DNA from: a bacterium
GTDB lineage: Bacteria; JACRDZ01; JAQUKH01
NCBI GenBank assembly: GCA_028719205.1
Contig: JAQUKH010000015.1
Span: 1 to 55,922, forward strand
Reading direction: 5' to 3'
Length of the DNA stretch: 55,922 nucleotides
Within the stretch, counting starts at the first letter, position 1; every line of letters begins with the position of its first letter. Of this stretch, positions 23,119 to 32,948 are shown in pieces. The notes below the pieces were generated by a model. It was not told the origin of the DNA, did not search any database, and was given only the letters and a program-made list of their open reading frames with translations. The position numbers and the translations under genes were made by a program.

Positions 23119-24804
23119 GTGAATATAAGCGAGACCTACAGCAATATAGGGCGTGTCCGCCAGATAATTAATGTTCTGATAAAACATGGTTTTGGTCAAA
23201 TAGTATCATATTTACATCTGGATAAATACCTTTCATTTGGAAAGAGATTTTTTGGATTAAAGATCGAAAAATTGTCTGAAAAAGAGATAGATCTTTCTCC
23301 CGCGGAGCGCCTCACGCTGGTTTTAGAGGAATTAGGCCCCACTTTTATTAAATTCGGGCAGATCATGAGTACCCGCCCTGATTTGATGCCCCTGGATTTT
23401 GTTGAAGCTTTTACAAGGCTTCAGGACAGGGTTAAACCTTTCAGTTATGAAGAAGCCAAAAATATAGTTGAAGGTGAATTAGGCCAGCCGATCGAGAAAT
23501 TATTTAAAAGTTTTGATAAAGAGCCGATCGCGGCCGCGTCCATTTCTCAGGTCCATTACGCGACGCTGAATACAGGCGAAGAGGTAGTTGTAAAGATCCA
23601 GCGGCCGGGAATACAGAAGAATATTCTTACGGATATTCGCATCCTTTATATGATCGCTAATTATATTGATAAAAGATTAGGCGATGATAAATTATTTGAG
23701 CCGTTATTGCTGGTTGAAGAATTTGATAATTCGATACGCCGGGAGTTGGATTTTGTCATTGAGGCAAGCAATACGGAAAAATTGCACAATAATTTTAAGG
23801 ATGATCCCAATATCCGGTTTTCTAATGTATGGTGGGATTATACTACATCGCGTGTGCTGACGCTTGAGAGGCTATCCGGTTTTAGAATAGATGATGACGA
23901 GAAATTTAAGCAATATAAAATTGATAAGGGAAAGCTGGCTGAAAAAATAATTTACGCGTATCTTAAACAGTTTTTCGAAGACGGATTTTTTCATGCTGAT
24001 CCTCATATGGGTAATATTCTGATATCGCCTGAGGGAAAAATCCTTGTTCTGGATTGCGGGATGGTCGGATACCTCCACAGGGAACTGAAGGAAAATTTCG
24101 CGCAGGTATTTGTCGGTATTGTTACACGCGATTTTGAAAAATTAGTGGATGCTTATATAAAGCTTGGTATGATGACTCAGCCTATTGATTACGTTTCTTT
24201 TCATAAAGACATTGTCGCCTATATGGAGAGGCATTTGGATGTTCCTATAAAGCAATTTAAGATTTCTGAAGTTTTTATGGATACTCTCGCGAATGCGCAA
24301 AAATACAAGATACGTGTAAATGTTGATTTTTTACTTTTAATGCGGTCTTTGGCGATACTTGAGAATATTTCAAGAAAACTTAAACCTGATATGAACATTC
24401 TTGAAATAACCAAACCGTATGCCTTCGACCTGTTAAAGAAAAAGTTCACTTTTAAAGATATAAAGGGAGGATTGCTAAAATTAGTTTTTGATTTGACAGA
24501 TACGTCCCGTGAGTTTCCAAAACAAATAAAACAGATCCTCCGTAAAGTTCAGACCGGAGGTTTGAGATTTGAAATCACAAACCCGATGGATAAAAAGATC
24601 GAGGCGGGTATGGAACGGCTCGGAAACAAGATTTCTATAGGTATTATTATTGCCGGGCTTGCTATCGCGTCAGGTATTGTTTTACAGAATTCGACCGCGC
24701 CGGCTTTATTCGGCATACCGCTGCTCACGCTTCTTGGTTATTGCGGTGTCGGGTTTATAACCATATTCTTAATCGTATCCATCATAAGTTATAATAAGGG
24801 TTAA
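23119..24804 (+). CDS. ubiB: AarF/UbiB (ABC1) atypical kinase family protein
   Basis: ELGPTFIKFGQIMSTRPD, AAASISQVH, VVVKIQRPG, FFHADPHMGN, LDCGMVG; two C-terminal TM helices. Confidence 0.92.
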   Translation: MNISETYSNIGRVRQIINVLIKHGFGQIVSYLHLDKYLSFGKRFFGLKIEKLSEKEIDLSPAERLTLVLEELGPTFIKFGQIMSTRPDLMPLDFVEAFTRLQDRVKPFSYEEAKNIVEGELGQPIEKLFKSFDKEPIAAASISQVHYATLNTGEEVVVKIQRPGIQKNILTDIRILYMIANYIDKRLGDDKLFEPLLLVEEFDNSIRRELDFVIEASNTEKLHNNFKDDPNIRFSNVWWDYTTSRVLTLERLSGFRIDDDEKFKQYKIDKGKLAEKIIYAYLKQFFEDGFFHADPHMGNILISPEGKILVLDCGMVGYLHRELKENFAQVFVGIVTRDFEKLVDAYIKLGMMTQPIDYVSFHKDIVAYMERHLDVPIKQFKISEVFMDTLANAQKYKIRVNVDFLLLMRSLAILENISRKLKPDMNILEITKPYAFDLLKKKFTFKDIKGGLLKLVFDLTDTSREFPKQIKQILRKVQTGGLRFEITNPMDKKIEAGMERLGNKISIGIIIAGLAIASGIVLQNSTAPALFGIPLLTLLGYCGVGFITIFLIVSIISYNKG

Positions 24805-26237
24805 TTGCCCATTGTTTCCGCGATCTTTTGCGCGGTCAATTCCGAGTTATGGATGCAATCGGCAATTCCAACCCCTCGTAAATAATTTCCGTTAAAAATA
24901 AGGCCGGGATGATTTGCCGCTAATTTTTCGATTTTTTCGACTGTTGTTTCATGGCCTATGACATATTGCGGCATGCCTTTTTTCCAACGGTATGCTTTTT
25001 GAATTACCGGTTCCGCGGAGATACCCATTATCGCGTTCCATTCGCTCAGAACAGTTTCAATTAATTCTTTTTCCTCTAAGTCAGCCATTTTTTCATTCGC
25101 CGCGCCGCCTAAAAAGCCCCGCAGGAGGACGTAATCTTTGTCACAGCGATGGGAGAATTTCGATGAGGTCCAGGTAGTTGCCATGATCTTTCTTCTTTCG
25201 GTCTTTGGAACCAGGAAACCAAATCCATGAAGAGGATGTTTTATATCTTTTCTTTTGAAGCCGACTGAAACAGTTGCCGCTGAAACATAAGGGAAGTTCG
25301 AAAGAATAGATGAAAGTTCATTGTCTAAATTTTTAACAAGTTCCGCAGCGGCGTAAGCGGGGGTAGTAAGAATAACTGTATCAATATCTTTCATGGTAAA
25401 AACATCGGTTTTAATCTCATAAGATATTTTATCCCCGTTTGTGATTTTGTTAATTGACAGGGCATTATTTTTTATCATGATTTTTGTATTGTCCAAAAGA
25501 TTTAATTTTAACGTGTCTATTAACTCTATTAAACCTTCCTTTAATGTCATAAATAATGTCAATTTAGGTTCGCCGGTTTCCGGTTTTTTTGTAAACTTTT
25601 TAGCTTCATCCATTCGCGCGATCATTCCTTTTATAAGTGAGCCGTATTTTTGCTCCATCTCAAGAAACCTGGGGAAGGTGTTTTTTAAACTCATTGTTTC
25701 AGGATTTCCCGCGTGAATACCAGCAACCAGAGGTTCAGCGATCTTATCCAGTGCCTCCTGGCCCAGACGTCTCCGCACGAAACTTCCAAGTGTCTCGTCG
25801 GAACCGTCTTTTTTAGCAGGGATAAAAAGATCCATCCCCATTCTTATTTTTCCCGGCAAAGAAAATAATGGAGTTTCTAAAAAAGGTTTTATCTTTGTCG
25901 GTATCATTAACATAAGGCCTTCAGGCATTTCTATTAATTTTTTATTAACCAGTATAAACGTTTTCTTATTTTCTTCATTGGTCCCGACAACCTCTGCTCC
26001 TATTCCGAGTTCCCTGCATAATTTTAATGCCCACGGCTTTTCCGATATGAAACAATCAGGCCCGCCTTCAATAATAAAACCATTCTTGTTTAAAGTTGTG
26101 ATATTCCCTCCCAAATTGGTTTCTTTCTCAAAAATATGAATTTGGGCATCAATTTTTTTTGCTTTAAGGAATTTATTCAAATAATAGGCTGTCGAAAGCC
26201 CGCTTATACCGCCGCCAATGATTGCTATTTGTTTCAT
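24801..26237 (-). CDS. hemY: HemY-type proto/coproporphyrinogen oxidase (CgoX/PgoX)
   Basis: GGGISGL FAD motif, IEGGPDCF, EPLVAGIHAG, GFGFLVP, MPQYVIGH, GVGIADCI. Confidence 0.93.
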   Translation of the reverse strand: MKQIAIIGGGISGLSTAYYLNKFLKAKKIDAQIHIFEKETNLGGNITTLNKNGFIIEGGPDCFISEKPWALKLCRELGIGAEVVGTNEENKKTFILVNKKLIEMPEGLMLMIPTKIKPFLETPLFSLPGKIRMGMDLFIPAKKDGSDETLGSFVRRRLGQEALDKIAEPLVAGIHAGNPETMSLKNTFPRFLEMEQKYGSLIKGMIARMDEAKKFTKKPETGEPKLTLFMTLKEGLIELIDTLKLNLLDNTKIMIKNNALSINKITNGDKISYEIKTDVFTMKDIDTVILTTPAYAAAELVKNLDNELSSILSNFPYVSAATVSVGFKRKDIKHPLHGFGFLVPKTERRKIMATTWTSSKFSHRCDKDYVLLRGFLGGAANEKMADLEEKELIETVLSEWNAIMGISAEPVIQKAYRWKKGMPQYVIGHETTVEKIEKLAANHPGLIFNGNYLRGVGIADCIHNSELTAQKIAETMGN

Positions 26238-26262
26238 TTATTATCTTCCTTTCTTAAAAAAA

Positions 26263-26571
26263 CTATCCATATTTAAATGATACACCGGATCCGCCATGAG
26301 GATATTTCCAATCGATGTTGTCATGTGGACAGGCTATTTTGCAGGTACCGCACTCAAAACAGTTCTCAAAAGCAACATGGATCTCTCTTTTTGTTTCTTC
26401 CCAGGTATATGTAGTTACCGGACAGGCATAAGTACATTCTCGATTTTCACACTTCAGGCATTCCTGCCGGTCAATAATTTTAAGGTGCGGTTCCTTATCG
26501 GCATTTATTTTAGTAAGATAGATCTTATCCTCAAGGCTTAATTTTTTAGACTCTTTAAGGTTTACGCTCAT
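26263..26571 (-). CDS. fixX: FixX-type ferredoxin
   Basis: CLKC...CTYACP and CFECGTCKIACP; C-terminal WKYPHGGSGVSFKYG. Confidence 0.9.
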   Translation of the reverse strand: MSVNLKESKKLSLEDKIYLTKINADKEPHLKIIDRQECLKCENRECTYACPVTTYTWEETKREIHVAFENCFECGTCKIACPHDNIDWKYPHGGSGVSFKYG

Positions 26572-26590
26572 AGTTATTCCTTTTTTTATT

Positions 26591-27973
26591 CTACCAGTGC
26601 GTGGCTACAAAATCCTCTATTTTTTTGGAGAATCCGTAGTAGAATGATTTCATAGCGTTGCGTAATTGAACAATTTTGATTATAAAAGGGACAAATCCGA
26701 TCTCATAATTAAATTTGTTCATAATATTCTCTTCCACTATTTCTTTGGGAGTTTCAGATATCGTAAAGACTTCAGTAAGAACGGACGCGAGCCCTCCAGG
26801 CCATTTATTAAAAAGCTCAGGGCTGTTTTTTAAGACTTCAGGTACATCACTGTATTTTTTCATATCCTTAATTACAAAACTGTTTTCCAGTTTGTCTATA
26901 TAACTTGAGAGGGTAACAGAAGAAAAGTCATTTTTTCCTATTGCCTCAATAACGGTTTCCGCGGCCATCATTCCTGAAGCCATAGCAAGGCTTGAACCTT
27001 CATGAAGAGGTGAGGTGCTGATAAAACCGGCGGCATCGCCCACTAATAAGAACCCGTCTTTGAAAAGTTTCGGTATTTTTTTATAACCTCCCTCCGGGAT
27101 CATATGCGCGGAATATTCTAAAGTTTTACCGCCGCGAATCAAAGGTTTTATACAGGGATGCTCTTTAAAATGTTCAAGAATATCATTCGGATTGAGTTTA
27201 GCATTCATGATATCATTGATCACTACACCAATACCGATTGAAATGTTTGTTTTGTTGGTATAGATAAAGCCTGATCCGAATAAGCCTTGTACCGCGTCAC
27301 CATAGTATTCAAAGGCTACACCTTCGTTTCCTTCCAGGTGGAACCTGTCTTCAATTACATCTTTAGGCAGTTCAATGACTTCTTTAACAGCAATAGCCAT
27401 GGAATGCTGATCAAATTTTTCCCGCATTCCTTCTTTAAGGGCAATAGTGGAATTAGCTCCTTCGGCGCAAATGATCACATCCGCGAAGATCTGTCCTTCT
27501 TCCTTTGGAGTTCCCTCAGTGACCCTGGTTTGCACGCCGATCACTTTTCCATTTTTATCTTTTATGAGCTCATCCGCAACAGAATTACATAGAAGCATTA
27601 CTCCGGCTTTTTCAGCCTCTTCCGCGAACCATTTATCAAACTTTCCCCTGAGAACAGTGAATATATTATTATATGGCGGCCGGTTAAATTCATTATTTTT
27701 GAAACTGAAAAATATCTCTGACTCGGGTGTGAGAAGAGCAAAACACCTTTTAGGGATATTTCTTTCAACCGGAGCGCCTTTTTCCAGGAAATCAGGCATG
27801 ATCTTATTCAATATTGTGGTAAATATAACTCCGCCCATTACATTTTTTGAGCCGGGATAATTTCCCCTTTCTAAAAGAACAACGTCTTTGATCCCTCTTT
27901 GCGCTAAAGTCAGGGCGGCAGTAGTTCCCGCGGGGCCGGCACCGATAACGATAACACTAAATTTTTCTTTCAA
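26591..27973 (-). CDS. fixC: FixC-type FAD-dependent oxidoreductase (ETF:quinone oxidoreductase-like)
   Basis: GAGPAG, ERGNYPGSKNVMGG, LRGKFDKWF, EYSAHMIPEGG, LLVGDAAG; TTG start with GGGAG SD. Confidence 0.9.
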   Translation of the reverse strand: MKEKFSVIVIGAGPAGTTAALTLAQRGIKDVVLLERGNYPGSKNVMGGVIFTTILNKIMPDFLEKGAPVERNIPKRCFALLTPESEIFFSFKNNEFNRPPYNNIFTVLRGKFDKWFAEEAEKAGVMLLCNSVADELIKDKNGKVIGVQTRVTEGTPKEEGQIFADVIICAEGANSTIALKEGMREKFDQHSMAIAVKEVIELPKDVIEDRFHLEGNEGVAFEYYGDAVQGLFGSGFIYTNKTNISIGIGVVINDIMNAKLNPNDILEHFKEHPCIKPLIRGGKTLEYSAHMIPEGGYKKIPKLFKDGFLLVGDAAGFISTSPLHEGSSLAMASGMMAAETVIEAIGKNDFSSVTLSSYIDKLENSFVIKDMKKYSDVPEVLKNSPELFNKWPGGLASVLTEVFTISETPKEIVEENIMNKFNYEIGFVPFIIKIVQLRNAMKSFYYGFSKKIEDFVATHW

Positions 27974-27985
27974 GGTTATTCTCCC

Positions 27986-28903
27986 TTAAACATACATTTT
28001 AATTAATTCTTTTAAAGATTCAATAAAAATCGGATTTACATTCAAAGAAGGTGTTCTTCTGAAATTTAGTCCGAGCTTTTGGGCTTCATTTTTATATATA
28101 ACATCAATATCATATAAAGTTTCAATATGGTCACAGATAAATCCTACAGGAACAAGCAGGACATTTTTTTTATTTGTGTCCTTGATCTTTCTTAAAACAT
28201 TAGATACATCGGGTTCCAGCCACTCTCCGGGGCTTGCGCCTTTACTTTGAAAAGCCAGGTGATATTTTGTAAAGCCTGTGTTATTTAAAATAGCTTCTAT
28301 AGTTTCTTTTATCTGTGATAAATACGGGTCGCCATCATCTATGAATTTTTTAGGAATACTGTGAACGCTGAAAATAATTTCAAGGTCTTTATCAGCGAAT
28401 TTATTTTTTTCTTCAATGATCAATTCACTGAATGCTTTTATAAAAAGAGGCTGTTTATGGTAACTTTTTATAAAAGTATAATTTATCTTATTATCAAATT
28501 CGGAAAAGCTTTTAATAAAATCATTAAGATATCCTTCCGTACTGATGCGTGAATAATACGGCGTCATCGGAAGAACTATTATTTTTACGATATTTTCTGA
28601 AATAATCTGTTTTACGGTATCAGCGATAAAAGGATGCCAATATCTCATTCCTACAAAAACTGAAAATATGTTTTCAGTTTTATTTAAGCTATCTTCCAAT
28701 GCTTTAGCCTGTTTTCGGGTTATTTCGAGAAGCGGCGATTTCCCGCCGATCTGTTCATAACGTTTTACGACTTCCTGTATTTTATCGGAAGGGATCCTCC
28801 CGCCAGTCACATTTTTAATAAACGGTTCAACCTCTTCAAAAGAAGCCGGGCCGCCAAAAGCTAAAAGTAAAACGGCTATTTTATTTTCTTTTACTGTATT
28901 CAT
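27986..28903 (-). CDS. hemH: Ferrochelatase (short, CpfC/HemH type)
   Basis: RYEQIGGKSPL, GMRYWHPFI, FSVHSIP, WLEPD, GFICDHIETLYDID. Confidence 0.95.
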   Translation of the reverse strand: MNTVKENKIAVLLLAFGGPASFEEVEPFIKNVTGGRIPSDKIQEVVKRYEQIGGKSPLLEITRKQAKALEDSLNKTENIFSVFVGMRYWHPFIADTVKQIISENIVKIIVLPMTPYYSRISTEGYLNDFIKSFSEFDNKINYTFIKSYHKQPLFIKAFSELIIEEKNKFADKDLEIIFSVHSIPKKFIDDGDPYLSQIKETIEAILNNTGFTKYHLAFQSKGASPGEWLEPDVSNVLRKIKDTNKKNVLLVPVGFICDHIETLYDIDVIYKNEAQKLGLNFRRTPSLNVNPIFIESLKELIKMYV

Positions 28904-29915
28904 GGACTGTATTTGCTAAAAGGATCACATTTTCTACAGGTGTTTCCTGCAGGATCCCGTGCCCGAGATTAAAAATATGCCCGGGCTGGTTATTGGTATA
29001 ATCTAAAATTTCTTTAACTTTTCTTTTTATTTCAGCGGGTTTCGCGAAAAGGACCGTCGGGTCAAGATTTCCCTGTATCGCTGTGTCTTTACCCAATCTA
29101 TCCCATGCCTCGTCAAGATTTATCCGCCAGTCGATCCCAATCACATCGCCTCCGGCTTTTTTCATTAACTCAAGTAAATGGCTGGTTCCTGTGCCGAAAT
29201 GAATGCTTGGAACATTAAGTTTTTTAACCGCTTTAAAGATCTTTTGTGAATAAGGTAATACGAATTCCGTATAGTCATTTACAGACATGCATCCAATCCA
29301 GCTGTCAAAAAGCTGGATAAGGTCAACGCCGCTTTTAACCTGCGCTGAAAGATATCTAATGATTATTTCAGCAAGCTTATCCATCATTTTGTGCCATGAT
29401 TTGGGATCGGTGTACATCATTGTTTTTGTTTTAAGATAGTCGCGGGAATGGCCGCCTTCGATCATATAGCTTGCCAGTGTGAACGGCGCTCCTGAAAAAC
29501 CGATAAGGGGGATTTTATCGTTAAGTTCCTTTTTGACTAATTTAATTGCCTTTAACAAATAAGGCACGTCACTTTCAGGTTCGATCACTCTTATTTTATC
29601 CACATCGTGCGCTGTCCTGACCGGATTTTTTATTACCGGGCCTTCGTTCTTGCCGAAATAAAAATCAATTCCCATGCCTTCCAGAGGCAGAAGAATGTCG
29701 GCAAATATGATTGCCGCGTCAAGCGGAATTTTTTTGATCGGCTGGAGGGTTACTTCACACGCGATTTCAGGATTTTTGCACATCTCGATGAAAGAATAAT
29801 TTTCGCGTATTTTCCTGTACTCTTCCATGTATCTTCCTGCTTGTCTCATGCACCAGACCGGCGTATAGGGTGTTTTCTCTCTCCGGCAAGCTTTAAGAAT
29901 TGTATCGTTTTTCAT
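28881..29915 (-). CDS. hemE: Uroporphyrinogen decarboxylase
   Basis: PVWCMRQAGRY, DAAIIFADIL, GFSGAPFTLASY, QLFDSW, QGNLDP, FNLGHGI; ATG 29915 follows GGAGG. Confidence 0.97.
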   Translation of the reverse strand: MKNDTILKACRREKTPYTPVWCMRQAGRYMEEYRKIRENYSFIEMCKNPEIACEVTLQPIKKIPLDAAIIFADILLPLEGMGIDFYFGKNEGPVIKNPVRTAHDVDKIRVIEPESDVPYLLKAIKLVKKELNDKIPLIGFSGAPFTLASYMIEGGHSRDYLKTKTMMYTDPKSWHKMMDKLAEIIIRYLSAQVKSGVDLIQLFDSWIGCMSVNDYTEFVLPYSQKIFKAVKKLNVPSIHFGTGTSHLLELMKKAGGDVIGIDWRINLDEAWDRLGKDTAIQGNLDPTVLFAKPAEIKRKVKEILDYTNNQPGHIFNLGHGILQETPVENVILLANTVHEYSKRK

Positions 29916-29963
29916 CAGGTCCTCCATAATAGATTTATTTAAATAAATTATATCACATTATAT

Positions 29964-29996
29964 TATCCCCTACGAGGATAACAATGAGTAAAAGCG
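29964..29996 (+). repeat. 33-bp dispersed repeat, copy 2
   Basis: Exact inverted match to 13970-14002. Confidence 0.9.
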
Positions 29997-30016
29997 GGTC
30001 CCGATAAATCGGGACC
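29997..30016. repeat. CCGA-Nx-TCGG palindrome (REP-like, may act as terminator)
   Basis: GGTCCCGAT-AA-ATCGGGACC, directly after the stop of 30019-30597. Confidence 0.7.
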
Positions 30017-30018
30017 GT

Positions 30019-30597
30019 TTAACTCAAGTTTATATTTTTATCGCCAACCAGAAAAATTTTCGGACGTTTTAACAGGTCAAAAATAAAAAAATCCTTTATA
30101 TCTTTTTTAAATATAAATTCTTTTCTGTTTATGCTATATATGTTTATTTTTCTTTTTAATTTCTTTTCAAGTGTACGCATGGAACCTGAAATTTTTTTCT
30201 TGTCAGGCTGTCCGATAATAAAAATAAAAACTTCCGCTTTAAGGTTATTTTCACCTTTGGCGATAGGTCCGTAAATAAAAGCTGTTTCTATACCTTTGAT
30301 TTTGGCTATTTCTTTTTTTATCTCATCAACAAGGCCGATCGTTTTATTTACGATCTGTTTTAATTCATTAAAGAGAGGATATTTCTTGTCTAAATAATAA
30401 AAATCCAGGCGCCCCTTTTTATGGGATAAAAAAATACCGGCCTTCTTAAGATTCAATAATTCCCGCCGGATGTTGCCGACAGTTGCCTTTAATATTTTCT
30501 CCAATTGCCTGAGATAATATTCATTGTCCGGTTCAACAAAATAAAGCCTGAGTATCGCTTCCCTCAGTTTTGACTTCCCAAGATTGAGCAAATCCAT
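30019..30597 (-). CDS. Winged-helix (ArsR-like) + degenerate minimal nucleotidyltransferase (MNT) domain protein
   Basis: YYLRQLEKIL...GNIRRELLNLKKAGIF...YPLFNELKQIVNKTIG, then AFIYGPIAKG...EVFIFIIG where the family motif is GS...DxD. Confidence 0.85.
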   Translation of the reverse strand: MDLLNLGKSKLREAILRLYFVEPDNEYYLRQLEKILKATVGNIRRELLNLKKAGIFLSHKKGRLDFYYLDKKYPLFNELKQIVNKTIGLVDEIKKEIAKIKGIETAFIYGPIAKGENNLKAEVFIFIIGQPDKKKISGSMRTLEKKLKRKINIYSINRKEFIFKKDIKDFFIFDLLKRPKIFLVGDKNINLS

Positions 30598-30701: not shown

Positions 30702-32948
30702 TTGTTTAAAGAAAAAATAACTGGTATTATCCGCTTAATGCCCAAAATAAAATCCTTTATTTACCGGAAATCCCGTTATATATTTATTTTGGAAACGTTA
30801 TTTATTATTTGGGGAATAATAGTTTATGCTTTTTATCCATGGAAAATCGGCCCTCAGAAGTTTATCGCATTTTCAAAAATATTATCAATTTTTGTATTAA
30901 ACGCGAAAATATCAATATTAATCAAAAGTATTTTGCCGTTGATCTTTATTTTATTCCTTATTATCCTTTCTTTTCTTATTGGAAGGTCAATAATCCGTAT
31001 TTGTAAAATAGAATTGAAAACGGGCCAAAAGACAGTAACATATTGCGGTTTAGGCTTGGGCTTTTTGTCGTTTTTGATGTTTTTTTTGGGAATGACCGGT
31101 TTATGGTTTTCGAAAGTAATAACAATTATTTTAGTGTTTTTATTTGCCAGCTTAAGTATATATAATATTGATCTGATCAGAGATAAGTCTTTGATTTCAA
31201 ATGTATTAAGGCCTATTAAAAACATAAGCATTATTGAAGCAATTATTGCCTTTTTTATTTTAATATTTTTGTGTTTAGGATTTTTAGGTGCTGCCAGCCC
31301 GGAGATATTTTATGATTCTTTGATATACCATCTTTCACTGCCGAATCTTTATCTTTTGGAACATAAGATAATTTCCACCCCGCAAAACCTTTTTTCAGGG
31401 ATACCTTTTTTAACAGAAATGCTTTATGGCTTAGGCTTGTCGATGTCCGGAGTGGAGGCTGCGAAGTTGATCCATTATTTATTCGGTATATTAGTTTTAA
31501 GTGTGATCTGGTCGTTTACTTCTCATGGTTTTTCGAAAAAAACGGTTCTTTTAGCGTCTTTTATTTTTTGTTCCACACCCATAGTTATATGGGAATTTAT
31601 GGAAGCCGCGGTTGAGTTGTCATGGACTTATTTTACTTTGCTCGCGGTATTACATATTTTAAATTTGTTTGACGCGTCTGAAGAAAAATCCATAAATAAT
31701 AACCTTATTATGTCAGGGATATTCAGCGGATTCGCGATGAGCACGAAATATCCCGCATGGCTTATTTTCCCTGTGCTGGTTTTACTTATTTATTTTATTG
31801 GAATTAAAAAACAAATGGTATTTACGGGTAGAATACGGCAAATTATTTTGTTTACCATAGTAACAAGTGTTTTAGTTTTTCCATGGATCGCAAAAAATAC
31901 ATTTTTTTACAAAAATCCTGTTTATCCTTTTTTGAATGATTATATTGCCGGTTCCTCAAATGATGACCCTGATTGGAGAATGCTTGGAGCGGAGGCCAGA
32001 GGAGAAAATATAATTACTAAACTTAGTTCTTTCCAAGGTGTAAAAAACTATATTAAATATCCATGGAATATAACTATGAATGGAATCTCTAATCATGATT
32101 TTATTGGAGCAGTTTTTCTTTTCTTTTTACCATGGCTTTTATATCCCGGAATAAAATCACAAAAATATAAGTATTTACTTTGTTTCTTTATTGGTTTTTA
32201 CATTATATTAAGTATAACGACAATTTATATTAGATTTTTTATACCGGTATTGGCATTATTATCTATACTGCTTTCGGTAATAATATGTGAATTTAGCCCG
32301 GGATATTTAAAGATATTTGCTTTTGTTTTTATAATATTATTATCCGGCTATAATTTTTGTTATACATATAATATTTGGTTTCAGACAGATTCCTGGATGG
32401 TATTTACCGGGCAAAAAAGCAGGGATGTATACCTTTCGGAAGCTCATAAGACATATCCTTCCCCTTATTACCAAACAGCTGTTTATATTAATAAAAATTT
32501 ACCGGAAGATTCAAAGATCCTTATTGTGGGGGACGAAAGAGGATTATATTATCAAAGAAAATATAATGCGTCATCCGTGTTTAATAAACAGCATTTTTTA
32601 AAAATACTTGAAAAGTCGGATAATAGCGGATCGTTCTATAATAATTTAAAAGAAGAAGGATTTACGCATATTCTTTTTAATATGATGGAGATCTACCGGT
32701 TGGTTCCGACACATAAATCAATTAAAATGCTATATACTGGTTTGGACAATAATAAAGTATCTATATTAAATGAATTTTGGAGTAAATATATTCAGGTAGT
32801 TCATATCGAAAGTAATGATTCTTCAGCGGGAGACCGGCGGTTTGTGATTTTGTATAAATTATTACCTTTACAGGAAGCAGAACAGCCTCATAATATACCG
32901 AAAAATCATTTTTTGTCTATTTTAGACCAGGTAAAAAAATCTGAATAA
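30702..32948 (+). CDS. Polytopic membrane GT-C fold glycosyltransferase (ArnT/PMT-like)
   Basis: Many TM helices, YDSLIYHLSLP loop, GFAMSTKY, PWIAKNTFFYKNPVYPF; start uncertain (TTG 30702 or ATG 30738). Confidence 0.75.
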   Translation: MFKEKITGIIRLMPKIKSFIYRKSRYIFILETLFIIWGIIVYAFYPWKIGPQKFIAFSKILSIFVLNAKISILIKSILPLIFILFLIILSFLIGRSIIRICKIELKTGQKTVTYCGLGLGFLSFLMFFLGMTGLWFSKVITIILVFLFASLSIYNIDLIRDKSLISNVLRPIKNISIIEAIIAFFILIFLCLGFLGAASPEIFYDSLIYHLSLPNLYLLEHKIISTPQNLFSGIPFLTEMLYGLGLSMSGVEAAKLIHYLFGILVLSVIWSFTSHGFSKKTVLLASFIFCSTPIVIWEFMEAAVELSWTYFTLLAVLHILNLFDASEEKSINNNLIMSGIFSGFAMSTKYPAWLIFPVLVLLIYFIGIKKQMVFTGRIRQIILFTIVTSVLVFPWIAKNTFFYKNPVYPFLNDYIAGSSNDDPDWRMLGAEARGENIITKLSSFQGVKNYIKYPWNITMNGISNHDFIGAVFLFFLPWLLYPGIKSQKYKYLLCFFIGFYIILSITTIYIRFFIPVLALLSILLSVIICEFSPGYLKIFAFVFIILLSGYNFCYTYNIWFQTDSWMVFTGQKSRDVYLSEAHKTYPSPYYQTAVYINKNLPEDSKILIVGDERGLYYQRKYNASSVFNKQHFLKILEKSDNSGSFYNNLKEEGFTHILFNMMEIYRLVPTHKSIKMLYTGLDNNKVSILNEFWSKYIQVVHIESNDSSAGDRRFVILYKLLPLQEAEQPHNIPKNHFLSILDQVKKSE

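Follow-up and report, generated by a model that had tools for sequence, protein, structure and literature searches.

The DNA analysed here (the window; 55,922 nucleotides, nt) is the entire contig JAQUKH010000015.1 (C15) of the 2.59-Mb bacterial assembly GCA_028719205.1 (genome G000; 92.7% complete). On its minus strand lie five co-oriented genes in the order hemE-hemH-fixC-fixX-hemY, with homologues of the quinone-reductase subunits FixC and FixX standing between the ferrochelatase and the porphyrinogen oxidase genes of a haem operon. We propose that electrons pass from HemY through FixX and FixC to menaquinone, a reading to which we give a probability of roughly 60%. The view that FixCX relieves HemY of its electrons without oxygen, advanced in an earlier note made from the letters of this stretch alone, gains support from comparative genomics, namely from a distinct FixC subfamily, from the recurrence of the hemY link in a second clade and from the predicted haem pathway complement of the genomes concerned.

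The identities of the five gene products given in the earlier note are those obtained by us from profile matches (Table 1) and from matches to solved structures. The window FixC has a flavin adenine dinucleotide (FAD)-binding Rossmann motif (GAGPAG, residues 11-16), several FAD-family Pfam matches (residues 5-46) and the quinone-binding domain of electron transfer flavoprotein (ETF):quinone oxidoreductase (ETF-QO; PF21162, above its cut-off). Its closest solved chain is 7koe_C, the FixC/EtfC chain of T. maritima (336 bits, E 2.9e-99, query residues 1-419). It falls under the cut-offs of the NCBIfam FixC-type models NF007450 (346.5 bits; cut-off 466) and NF007542 (334.8 bits; cut-off 610) and is, as judged from its sequence, a FixC homologue beyond the curated E. 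coli-type families. The window FixX, which combines a Fer4_ETF_QO domain with two [4Fe-4S]-type cysteine motifs (CxxCx4Cx3CP and CxxCxxCx3CP), is closest among solved chains to 7koe_D (94.9 bits) and also scores below the NCBIfam FixX model (NF011993; 40.9 vs a cut-off of 166); both motifs are retained in the hemY-associated subfamily described below. In the FixX proteins of five loci outside that subfamily (L003, L008, L009, L015 and L166), whose FixC partners belong to several groups, the first-motif cysteines are absent, so that these are probably one-cluster proteins. The window HemY is, by its profile and structure matches, a standard FAD porphyrinogen oxidase, the closest solved chain being 3i6d_A (314.6 bits, vs 209 bits for 2ivd_A), which we take to be HemY of B. 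subtilis.

In a FixC tree of 54 rows (IQ-TREE, LG+C20) the window protein falls inside a 23-row clade (ultrafast bootstrap, UFBoot, 100; SH-like approximate likelihood ratio test, SH-aLRT, 98) with zero ETF-linked members, and ETF-linked genes, e.g. those of the Calditrichota locus L003, occur in its sister groups. The window FixC does not cluster with fixAB-partnered proteins, which is the outcome that agrees with the earlier note. The clade is made up of the window's genus, nine metagenomic proteins and the hemY-linked second clade, the last including a contig labelled Deferrisomatales that is broken off 20 nt upstream of fixC. Its members share a 6-residue insertion, found in every aligned subfamily row and missing from the other rows and from 7koe_C (an exception is the ETF-linked row L008, with a partial 3-residue insertion at the same site), one additional residue in the DFLEKGAP stretch (missing from other FixC and from 7koe_C), and a C-terminal tail, which ends HW in the window protein and NW in other lineages.

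A profile of this subfamily was run on 301 genomes of the second clade's phylum, 401 diverse genomes and 1.84 billion cluster representatives (50% identity). Members scored 690-787 bits at full length, matching through position 459, and the best non-members reached 568-583 bits with alignments ending near position 440. The subfamily was found in 9 of the 301 genomes, in 2 of the 401 (solely G000 and its sister G002) and in one cluster representative (718.7 bits); given so few members, it is by this profile rare and compact. A metagenome scan with the FixC alignment yielded about eight true FixC relatives (40-44% identity) and no further subfamily member, a second search pattern being unspecific. 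Subfamily proteins currently bear the annotation names 'FAD-dependent oxidoreductase' and 'electron transfer flavoprotein-quinone oxidoreductase', and the signatures given above let such loci be spotted in genome annotation. A further FixC relative (51-52% identical), with no FixX detected, occurs in metagenome-assembled genomes (MAGs) of Planctomycetia (L004:4286-9784) and Omnitrophota (L006:75-5336), where it is placed between a cNMP (cyclic nucleotide)-binding/ParA-like/patatin protein and an acyl-CoA synthetase.

The genomic context of FixC was surveyed at 80 loci from a collection of species-representative genomes. The gene is flanked by etfB and/or etfA at 59 of them, 20 have other or unknown neighbours, and at one (L007) fixC lies with hemY; the FixC encoded there is 51% identical to that of the window, and its gene starts 4 nt after the end of hemY. 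Among 61 relatives of the L007 genome, 21 encode a subfamily FixC (at least 58% identity to that of L007), and it is these that we call the second clade. In 16 of the 21, hemY is immediately upstream of fixC on the same strand and contig; in the remaining five (G045, G048, G051, G052 and G055) the genes lie at the end of a contig or the search found no hemY. The fixX gene follows fixC in all 14 loci examined, usually after less than about 150 nt (once 517 nt and once about 2 kb). Since hemH and ahbD are located away from hemY-fixC in this clade, the conserved unit is hemY-fixC-fixX. Five second-clade genomes have extra FixC paralogues, two each, and all 10 stand beside etfA and/or etfB (6 with an acyl-CoA dehydrogenase); with the ETF linkage carried by these paralogues, the hemY-linked copy is not simply the cell's ETF-QO.

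Overall, a hemY match is present in the flanks of 17 of the 18 subfamily members with readable context, compared with 0 of the 78 collection loci and 0 of the 10 paralogue loci with FixC outside the subfamily, and no ETF genes were found near any subfamily locus examined. The adjacency of hemY and fixC exceeds chance, and the link looks functional, not accidental. The divergent gene upstream of hemY at L007 (6181-7326, minus strand) encodes 381 amino acids (aa) with an AhpC/TSA-thioredoxin-like domain, and open reading frames (ORFs) of similar size (368-416 aa) at the same divergent position in L168, L169, L170 and L176 may be a further part of the locus.

The HemY tree adds to this picture. 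The window HemY joins the other HemY proteins from its phylum (SH-aLRT 100), in the company of loci of the hemE-hemH-hemY type, and the 16 FixC-linked HemY proteins of the second clade are found across the deepest split (100); FixC was not found within 1.5 kb at any of 27 other HemY loci. With FixC-linked HemY in different HemY groups, the linkage arose at least twice, in two gene orders (hemY-fixC-fixX in the second clade vs fixC-fixX-hemY within hemEHY in the window). Independent attachment to two HemY lineages is stronger evidence for functional coupling than shared inheritance. On the uniqueness of the arrangement, which the earlier note regarded as damaging, the result is divided: within the genus only this species has the exact gene order, yet a hemY-fixCX linkage as such recurs in the second clade.

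The gene complement paints the window organism as a probable anaerobe in which HemY would be the sole nominally O2-requiring step of haem synthesis. Neither haem-copper nor bd oxidase genes were found in the three genomes of its genus, and the menaquinone synthesis genes MqnA/D are present in all five genomes examined for them, including all three of the genus. The earlier note saw neither ChdC nor AhbD in the window and placed the last step elsewhere. This holds: a search of the genome for ChdC found none, and AhbD, the radical-SAM haem b synthase, is encoded on contig C50 (TIGR04545, 552.7 bits; cut-off 500). Its gene stands between hemB and hemL in another haem operon (locus L211; C50:1367-12463, minus strand) with the order rnfB-like, ccsB, hemA, hemC, cobA/hemD fusion, multihaem cytochrome c, hemB, ahbD, hemL. 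The cytochrome of this operon, a 554-aa NHL-repeat protein with multiple haem motifs (CXXCH), thus sits with AhbD amid early-pathway genes.

In a set of 24 genomes that includes the window's, an AhbD-like gene was found in 22 and HemH in 23, and none has ChdC (PF06778), HemJ (PF03653, UPF0093) or AhbC (TIGR04546, for which just cross-matches of about 200 bits on AhbD genes were seen, against a cut-off of 650). CgoN (PF07285, DUF1444) was absent from the five genomes examined for it, and searches of the window's genome turned up neither HemF nor the AhbA/B-type domain PF17805. In view of the negative results for AhbC and AhbA/B, we rejected an assignment of AhbD to the siroheme-dependent pathway; it appears to complete a coproporphyrin-type route in place of the coproheme decarboxylase ChdC (HemQ). 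The single HemN-like gene of the genome, a radical S-adenosylmethionine (radical-SAM) gene on contig C5, was rejected as a true HemN, as it lies below all cut-offs (160.7 bits vs 324.95). With HemF not found, the HemN-like gene under its cut-off and AhbD present, the context favours coproporphyrinogen III (CgoX) over protoporphyrinogen IX (PgoX) as the probable substrate of HemY, and the hemH product is read as a coproporphyrin ferrochelatase. In the sister genome G002, a cluster at a contig end (C70:8-1430), for which no counterpart was found in the window's genome, consists of two adjacent genes with AhbA/B-NirDLGH-type domains and a piece of a second, likewise AhbD/NirJ-like radical-SAM gene.

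Several observations weigh against the proposed coupling. In both sister genomes (G001 and G002), as well as in a genome of the same phylum (G003), hemE-hemH-hemY is uninterrupted. FixC was not found anywhere in G001 (98% complete; best match E 5e-7), and this genome has HemY together with EtfA, EtfB and AhbD and no oxidase genes; having HemY without FixC, it implies that HemY in this genus can do without FixCX. G002 has a fixC-fixX pair (85% identical) on another contig, with its own promoter-like site and unrelated neighbours, far from hemY. Of the 401 diverse genomes, 117 encode HemY, just 2 of them together with the FixC subfamily, and the nine metagenomic subfamily members are known by protein sequence, without gene context. 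Haem-copper oxidases above cut-off are present in 14 of the 21 second-clade genomes, so that the module is not restricted to strict anaerobes. The window's genome, with a single FixC and a single FixX next to EtfA and EtfB, leaves room for an ordinary ETF role of FixCX, alone or additional. No HemY-FixC fusion was seen among longer proteins or in the 150 best cluster representatives (longest 529 aa). Finally, in S. aureus the Firmicute CgoX supports anaerobic haem synthesis, with cgoX the sole one required among three candidate genes (PMC6620371, in excerpt).

The single fused relative that did turn up among longer proteins is an ETF-FixC fusion (P0126), and two apparent long frames across hemY and fixC in high-GC loci were dismissed as ORF-calling artefacts, the genes occupying different frames. 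Complex prediction for FixC and HemY, run twice without FixX and without controls, gave a score of 0.00, which speaks neither for binding nor against it.

The HemY tree places G000 and G001 as sisters (SH-aLRT 99) with G002 outside them, and the simplest history is that the ancestor of the genus had fixCX elsewhere, the pair later being lost from G001 and relocated to the hemH-hemY junction in the window species. The genes flanking the operon in G001 match those of the window on both sides, and its hemH and hemY are about 115 nt apart; this spacer (L163:9836-9950, 115 nt), at the position of fixCX in the window, holds an imperfect inverted repeat. G001 and the window species share the same hemY ribosome-binding region (AAGAAAGGAAG).

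Among other explanations, the one we would rank next, unlikely as we consider it, is that FixCX is the ordinary ETF:menaquinone oxidoreductase of the organism, serving EtfAB and acyl-CoA dehydrogenase, and came to lie between hemH and hemY by neutral rearrangement of a much-rearranged genome. It draws on FixCX being the only such pair of the genome, on the clear homology of FixC and FixX to the EtfC and EtfX chains of T. maritima, on the missing fixCX insertion at the hem locus of both sister species and on the prevalence of ETF-linked loci in the collection survey (59/80). EtfA and EtfB are indeed present; as stated in the earlier note, the window has no fixAB/ETF genes, and the genome's ETF-domain genes, two in all, are unlinked (etfB at C20:34899-35693, plus strand, beside an acyl-CoA dehydrogenase; etfA at C12:52971-54179, minus strand). 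EtfA has an N-terminal two-cluster ferredoxin domain, and the split of etfB and etfA is repeated in both sister genomes. On the other hand, the FixC subfamily is without any ETF-linked member, and in the second clade its copy stands beside hemY and the ETF linkage is held by separate paralogues (10/10). Since G001 has EtfA and EtfB and no FixC, ETF in this genus functions without FixC, and a chance landing by hemY is improbable for a subfamily tied to hemY elsewhere.

Less probable still is a role of FixCX with another haem or respiratory partner, either as an electron sink or source for AhbD or as a general menaquinone-reducing module acting with cytochromes, the link to hemY being merely one of co-regulation. 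Radical-SAM decarboxylations likewise require an electron acceptor, AhbD-like genes accompany the module in 22 of 24 genomes, and haem and quinone are both used in respiration; however, the conserved neighbour is hemY, with ahbD and hemH elsewhere in the second clade, and in the window's genome ahbD belongs to a separate operon. We consider quite improbable a third possibility, in which HemY would still use trace O2 and FixCX would be a safety valve competing with O2 and limiting H2O2 in oxygen-sensitive cells, not enabling an anaerobic route. HemY-type oxidases do produce H2O2 (PMC10965808, in excerpt), ChdC, which is able to consume it, was found in none of the 24 genomes, and the oxidases of the second clade imply contact with oxygen; no oxidase genes are present in the window's genus, and the chemistry (HemY to FixCX to quinone) would equal that of an electron transfer from HemY to menaquinone, the physiological emphasis alone being different.

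Under the favoured reading, with HemY as the electron donor to FixCX, HemY would oxidise coproporphyrinogen III and its reduced FAD would be re-oxidised, in place of O2, by the clusters of FixX; these would hand the electrons to the flavin of FixC, which would deliver them to membrane menaquinone. In EtfABCX, the clusters of EtfX pass electrons to the FAD of EtfC, and from there they reach menaquinone (PMC10734219, in excerpt); the proposed path would thus equal the high-potential branch of that complex, with HemY substituting for EtfAB. Gene identities, cofactor motifs, linkage patterns, phylogeny and pathway complement are shown by the sequences themselves. By analogy with EtfABCX we infer that HemY contacts FixX and that electrons flow from there towards menaquinone; the choice of coproporphyrinogen as substrate is likewise inferred. 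HemY turnover would then need no O2 and make no H2O2, and HemE, HemY-FixCX, HemH and AhbD (from the C50 operon) would together form a coproporphyrin-dependent haem pathway without an O2-requiring step. The insertion and C-terminal tail of FixC may be an adaptation to the new donor, and the relocation of fixCX into the hemE-hemH-hemY operon would have put the pair under shared control with hemY. In a more specific version, to which we give even odds, HemY-FixX-FixC would be a membrane-associated coproporphyrinogen:menaquinone oxidoreductase in which the FixC insertion and tail dock HemY, a third independent solution after HemG and CgoN that would provide, with AhbD, a fully anaerobic pathway in Gram-negative-type anaerobes.

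The layout of the locus itself (Table 1) is also counted for a functional link, the five genes being tightly packed, co-oriented and apparently served by one promoter-like site. The spacing described in the earlier note (at most 25 nt, with hemE and hemH overlapping) proved accurate: the overlap spans 23 nt, successive gaps measure 12 nt (hemH-fixC), 19 nt (fixC-fixX) and 25 nt (fixX-hemY), and a purine run resembling a ribosome-binding site is present in all three gaps. The end of the operon given there, 29915, does correspond to an in-frame ATG of hemE, albeit the second; the longest frame begins at 29927. The promoter scan of the region returned 34 promoter-like sites vs 26.3 expected from shuffles, and the site upstream of hemE is therefore a candidate only. 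The hairpin beyond it, a pattern match, may terminate the upstream 192-aa gene and so mark the upstream limit of the haem operon. This 192-aa ORF (30019-30597, minus strand), which also borders the haem operon in G001, has a sub-threshold nucleotidyltransferase match only, and a 748-aa ORF (30702-32948, plus strand) has no Pfam or NCBIfam match. On the downstream flank, hemY is convergent with a gene for a UbiB-type ABC1 kinase.

Table 1. Haem operon features in the window (positions in nt on the contig; lengths of gene products in aa)
Feature	Position	Strand	Evidence and remarks
hemE, uroporphyrinogen decarboxylase	28881-29927	-	348 aa; PF01208 472 bits; TIGR01464 449.8 bits (cut-off 302.95)
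hemH, ferrochelatase	27986-28903	-	305 aa; PF00762 311.8 bits; TIGR00109 263.7 bits (cut-off 124.6)
fixC-like, FAD and quinone subunit	26591-27973	-	460 aa; PF21162 33 bits (cut-off 27.7)
Subfamily-specific FixC insertion, 6 residues, VTEGTP(K), ~residues 151-157	27503..27523	-	alignment
Subfamily-specific FixC C-terminal tail, ~18 residues (~443-460)	26594..26647	-	alignment
fixX-like ferredoxin	26263-26571	-	102 aa; PF05187 38 bits (cut-off 24)
hemY, FAD-dependent porphyrinogen oxidase	24801-26237	-	478 aa; TIGR00562 359.6 bits (cut-off 97.85)
Candidate sigma-70-like promoter, TTGTTA-16-TATAAT, directly 5' of hemE	29957..29984	-	10/12 consensus matches
Terminator-like hairpin	29997..30016	-	consensus scan: 8-pair stem, 6 G-C pairs, T-rich tail; pattern match alone

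The O2-free working of HemY-type (CgoX/PgoX) enzymes is an acknowledged gap. According to the 2019 study in S. aureus (PMC6620371, in excerpt) the anaerobic electron acceptor of CgoX was still to be identified, and a 2026 review, in its excerpted text (PMC13564367), offers for the anaerobic step just CgoN and the S. aureus CgoX observation. A full-text search of one literature collection returned no publication joining protoporphyrinogen oxidase/HemY with FixC/FixX, and among the matches listed the sole pairing of haem with ETF-QO was a review of mitochondrial oxidative phosphorylation with one mention of each; the author of the earlier note likewise knew of no description of this coupling. 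What we propose as new is a FixCX/ETF-QO-type quinone reductase with a novel donor, acting on a problem solved otherwise by HemG and CgoN. If correct, it would be the first case of the 'oxygen-dependent' HemY itself being rewired to the quinone pool, with a dedicated FixCX as a definite acceptor that lends itself to direct testing. It would also widen the donor range of the FixCX/ETF-QO quinone-reductase module beyond ETF and define a complete O2-free coproporphyrin route (HemE, HemY-FixCX, HemH and AhbD) in uncultured anaerobes.

The closest known relatives of the module are EtfABCX/FixABCX (7KOE of T. maritima; FixABCX of Azotobacter), with which the window pair shares FAD, two [4Fe-4S]-type motifs and a quinone-binding domain for menaquinone (PMC10734219, in excerpt). 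In contrast to these, the window fixCX has no linked etfAB/fixAB and has hemY as its conserved neighbour, and its FixC bears the 6-residue insertion and the tail of about 18 residues that are missing from 7koe_C and from ETF-linked FixC. The mitochondrial/proteobacterial ETF-QO (2GMH), which combines one [4Fe-4S] cluster with FAD and a quinone site in a single chain, is homologous to FixC and FixX together, but it is a fused polypeptide with ETF as the donor and a much weaker match (131.5 bits). The operon has the hemE-hemH-hemY order of the B. subtilis-type hemEHY operon, an order seen in both sisters, in the genome of the same phylum and in several diverse genomes; unlike that operon, the window's has fixC-fixX inserted after hemH and ahead of hemY, and AhbD, not ChdC, appears to act as the last enzyme. 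Precedents for a transfer of porphyrinogen electrons to quinones are HemG of E. coli and CgoN, the latter with menadione (PMC13564367 and PMC10965808, both in excerpt). HemG (PgdH1), the enterobacterial O2-independent protoporphyrinogen dehydrogenase, passes the six porphyrinogen electrons to the quinone pool, not to O2 (PMC13564367), as HemY with FixCX would do; however, it is a single flavodoxin-like flavin mononucleotide (FMN) protein acting on protoporphyrinogen, whereas HemY would work with a two-subunit quinone reductase. CgoN (YtpQ, DUF1444) of Priestia megaterium comes closest in function, with an O2-independent oxidation of coproporphyrinogen III within the coproporphyrin-dependent pathway and a menaquinone analogue as the acceptor (PMC10965808); it belongs to an unrelated family and substitutes for HemY, whereas the proposed FixCX would serve it.

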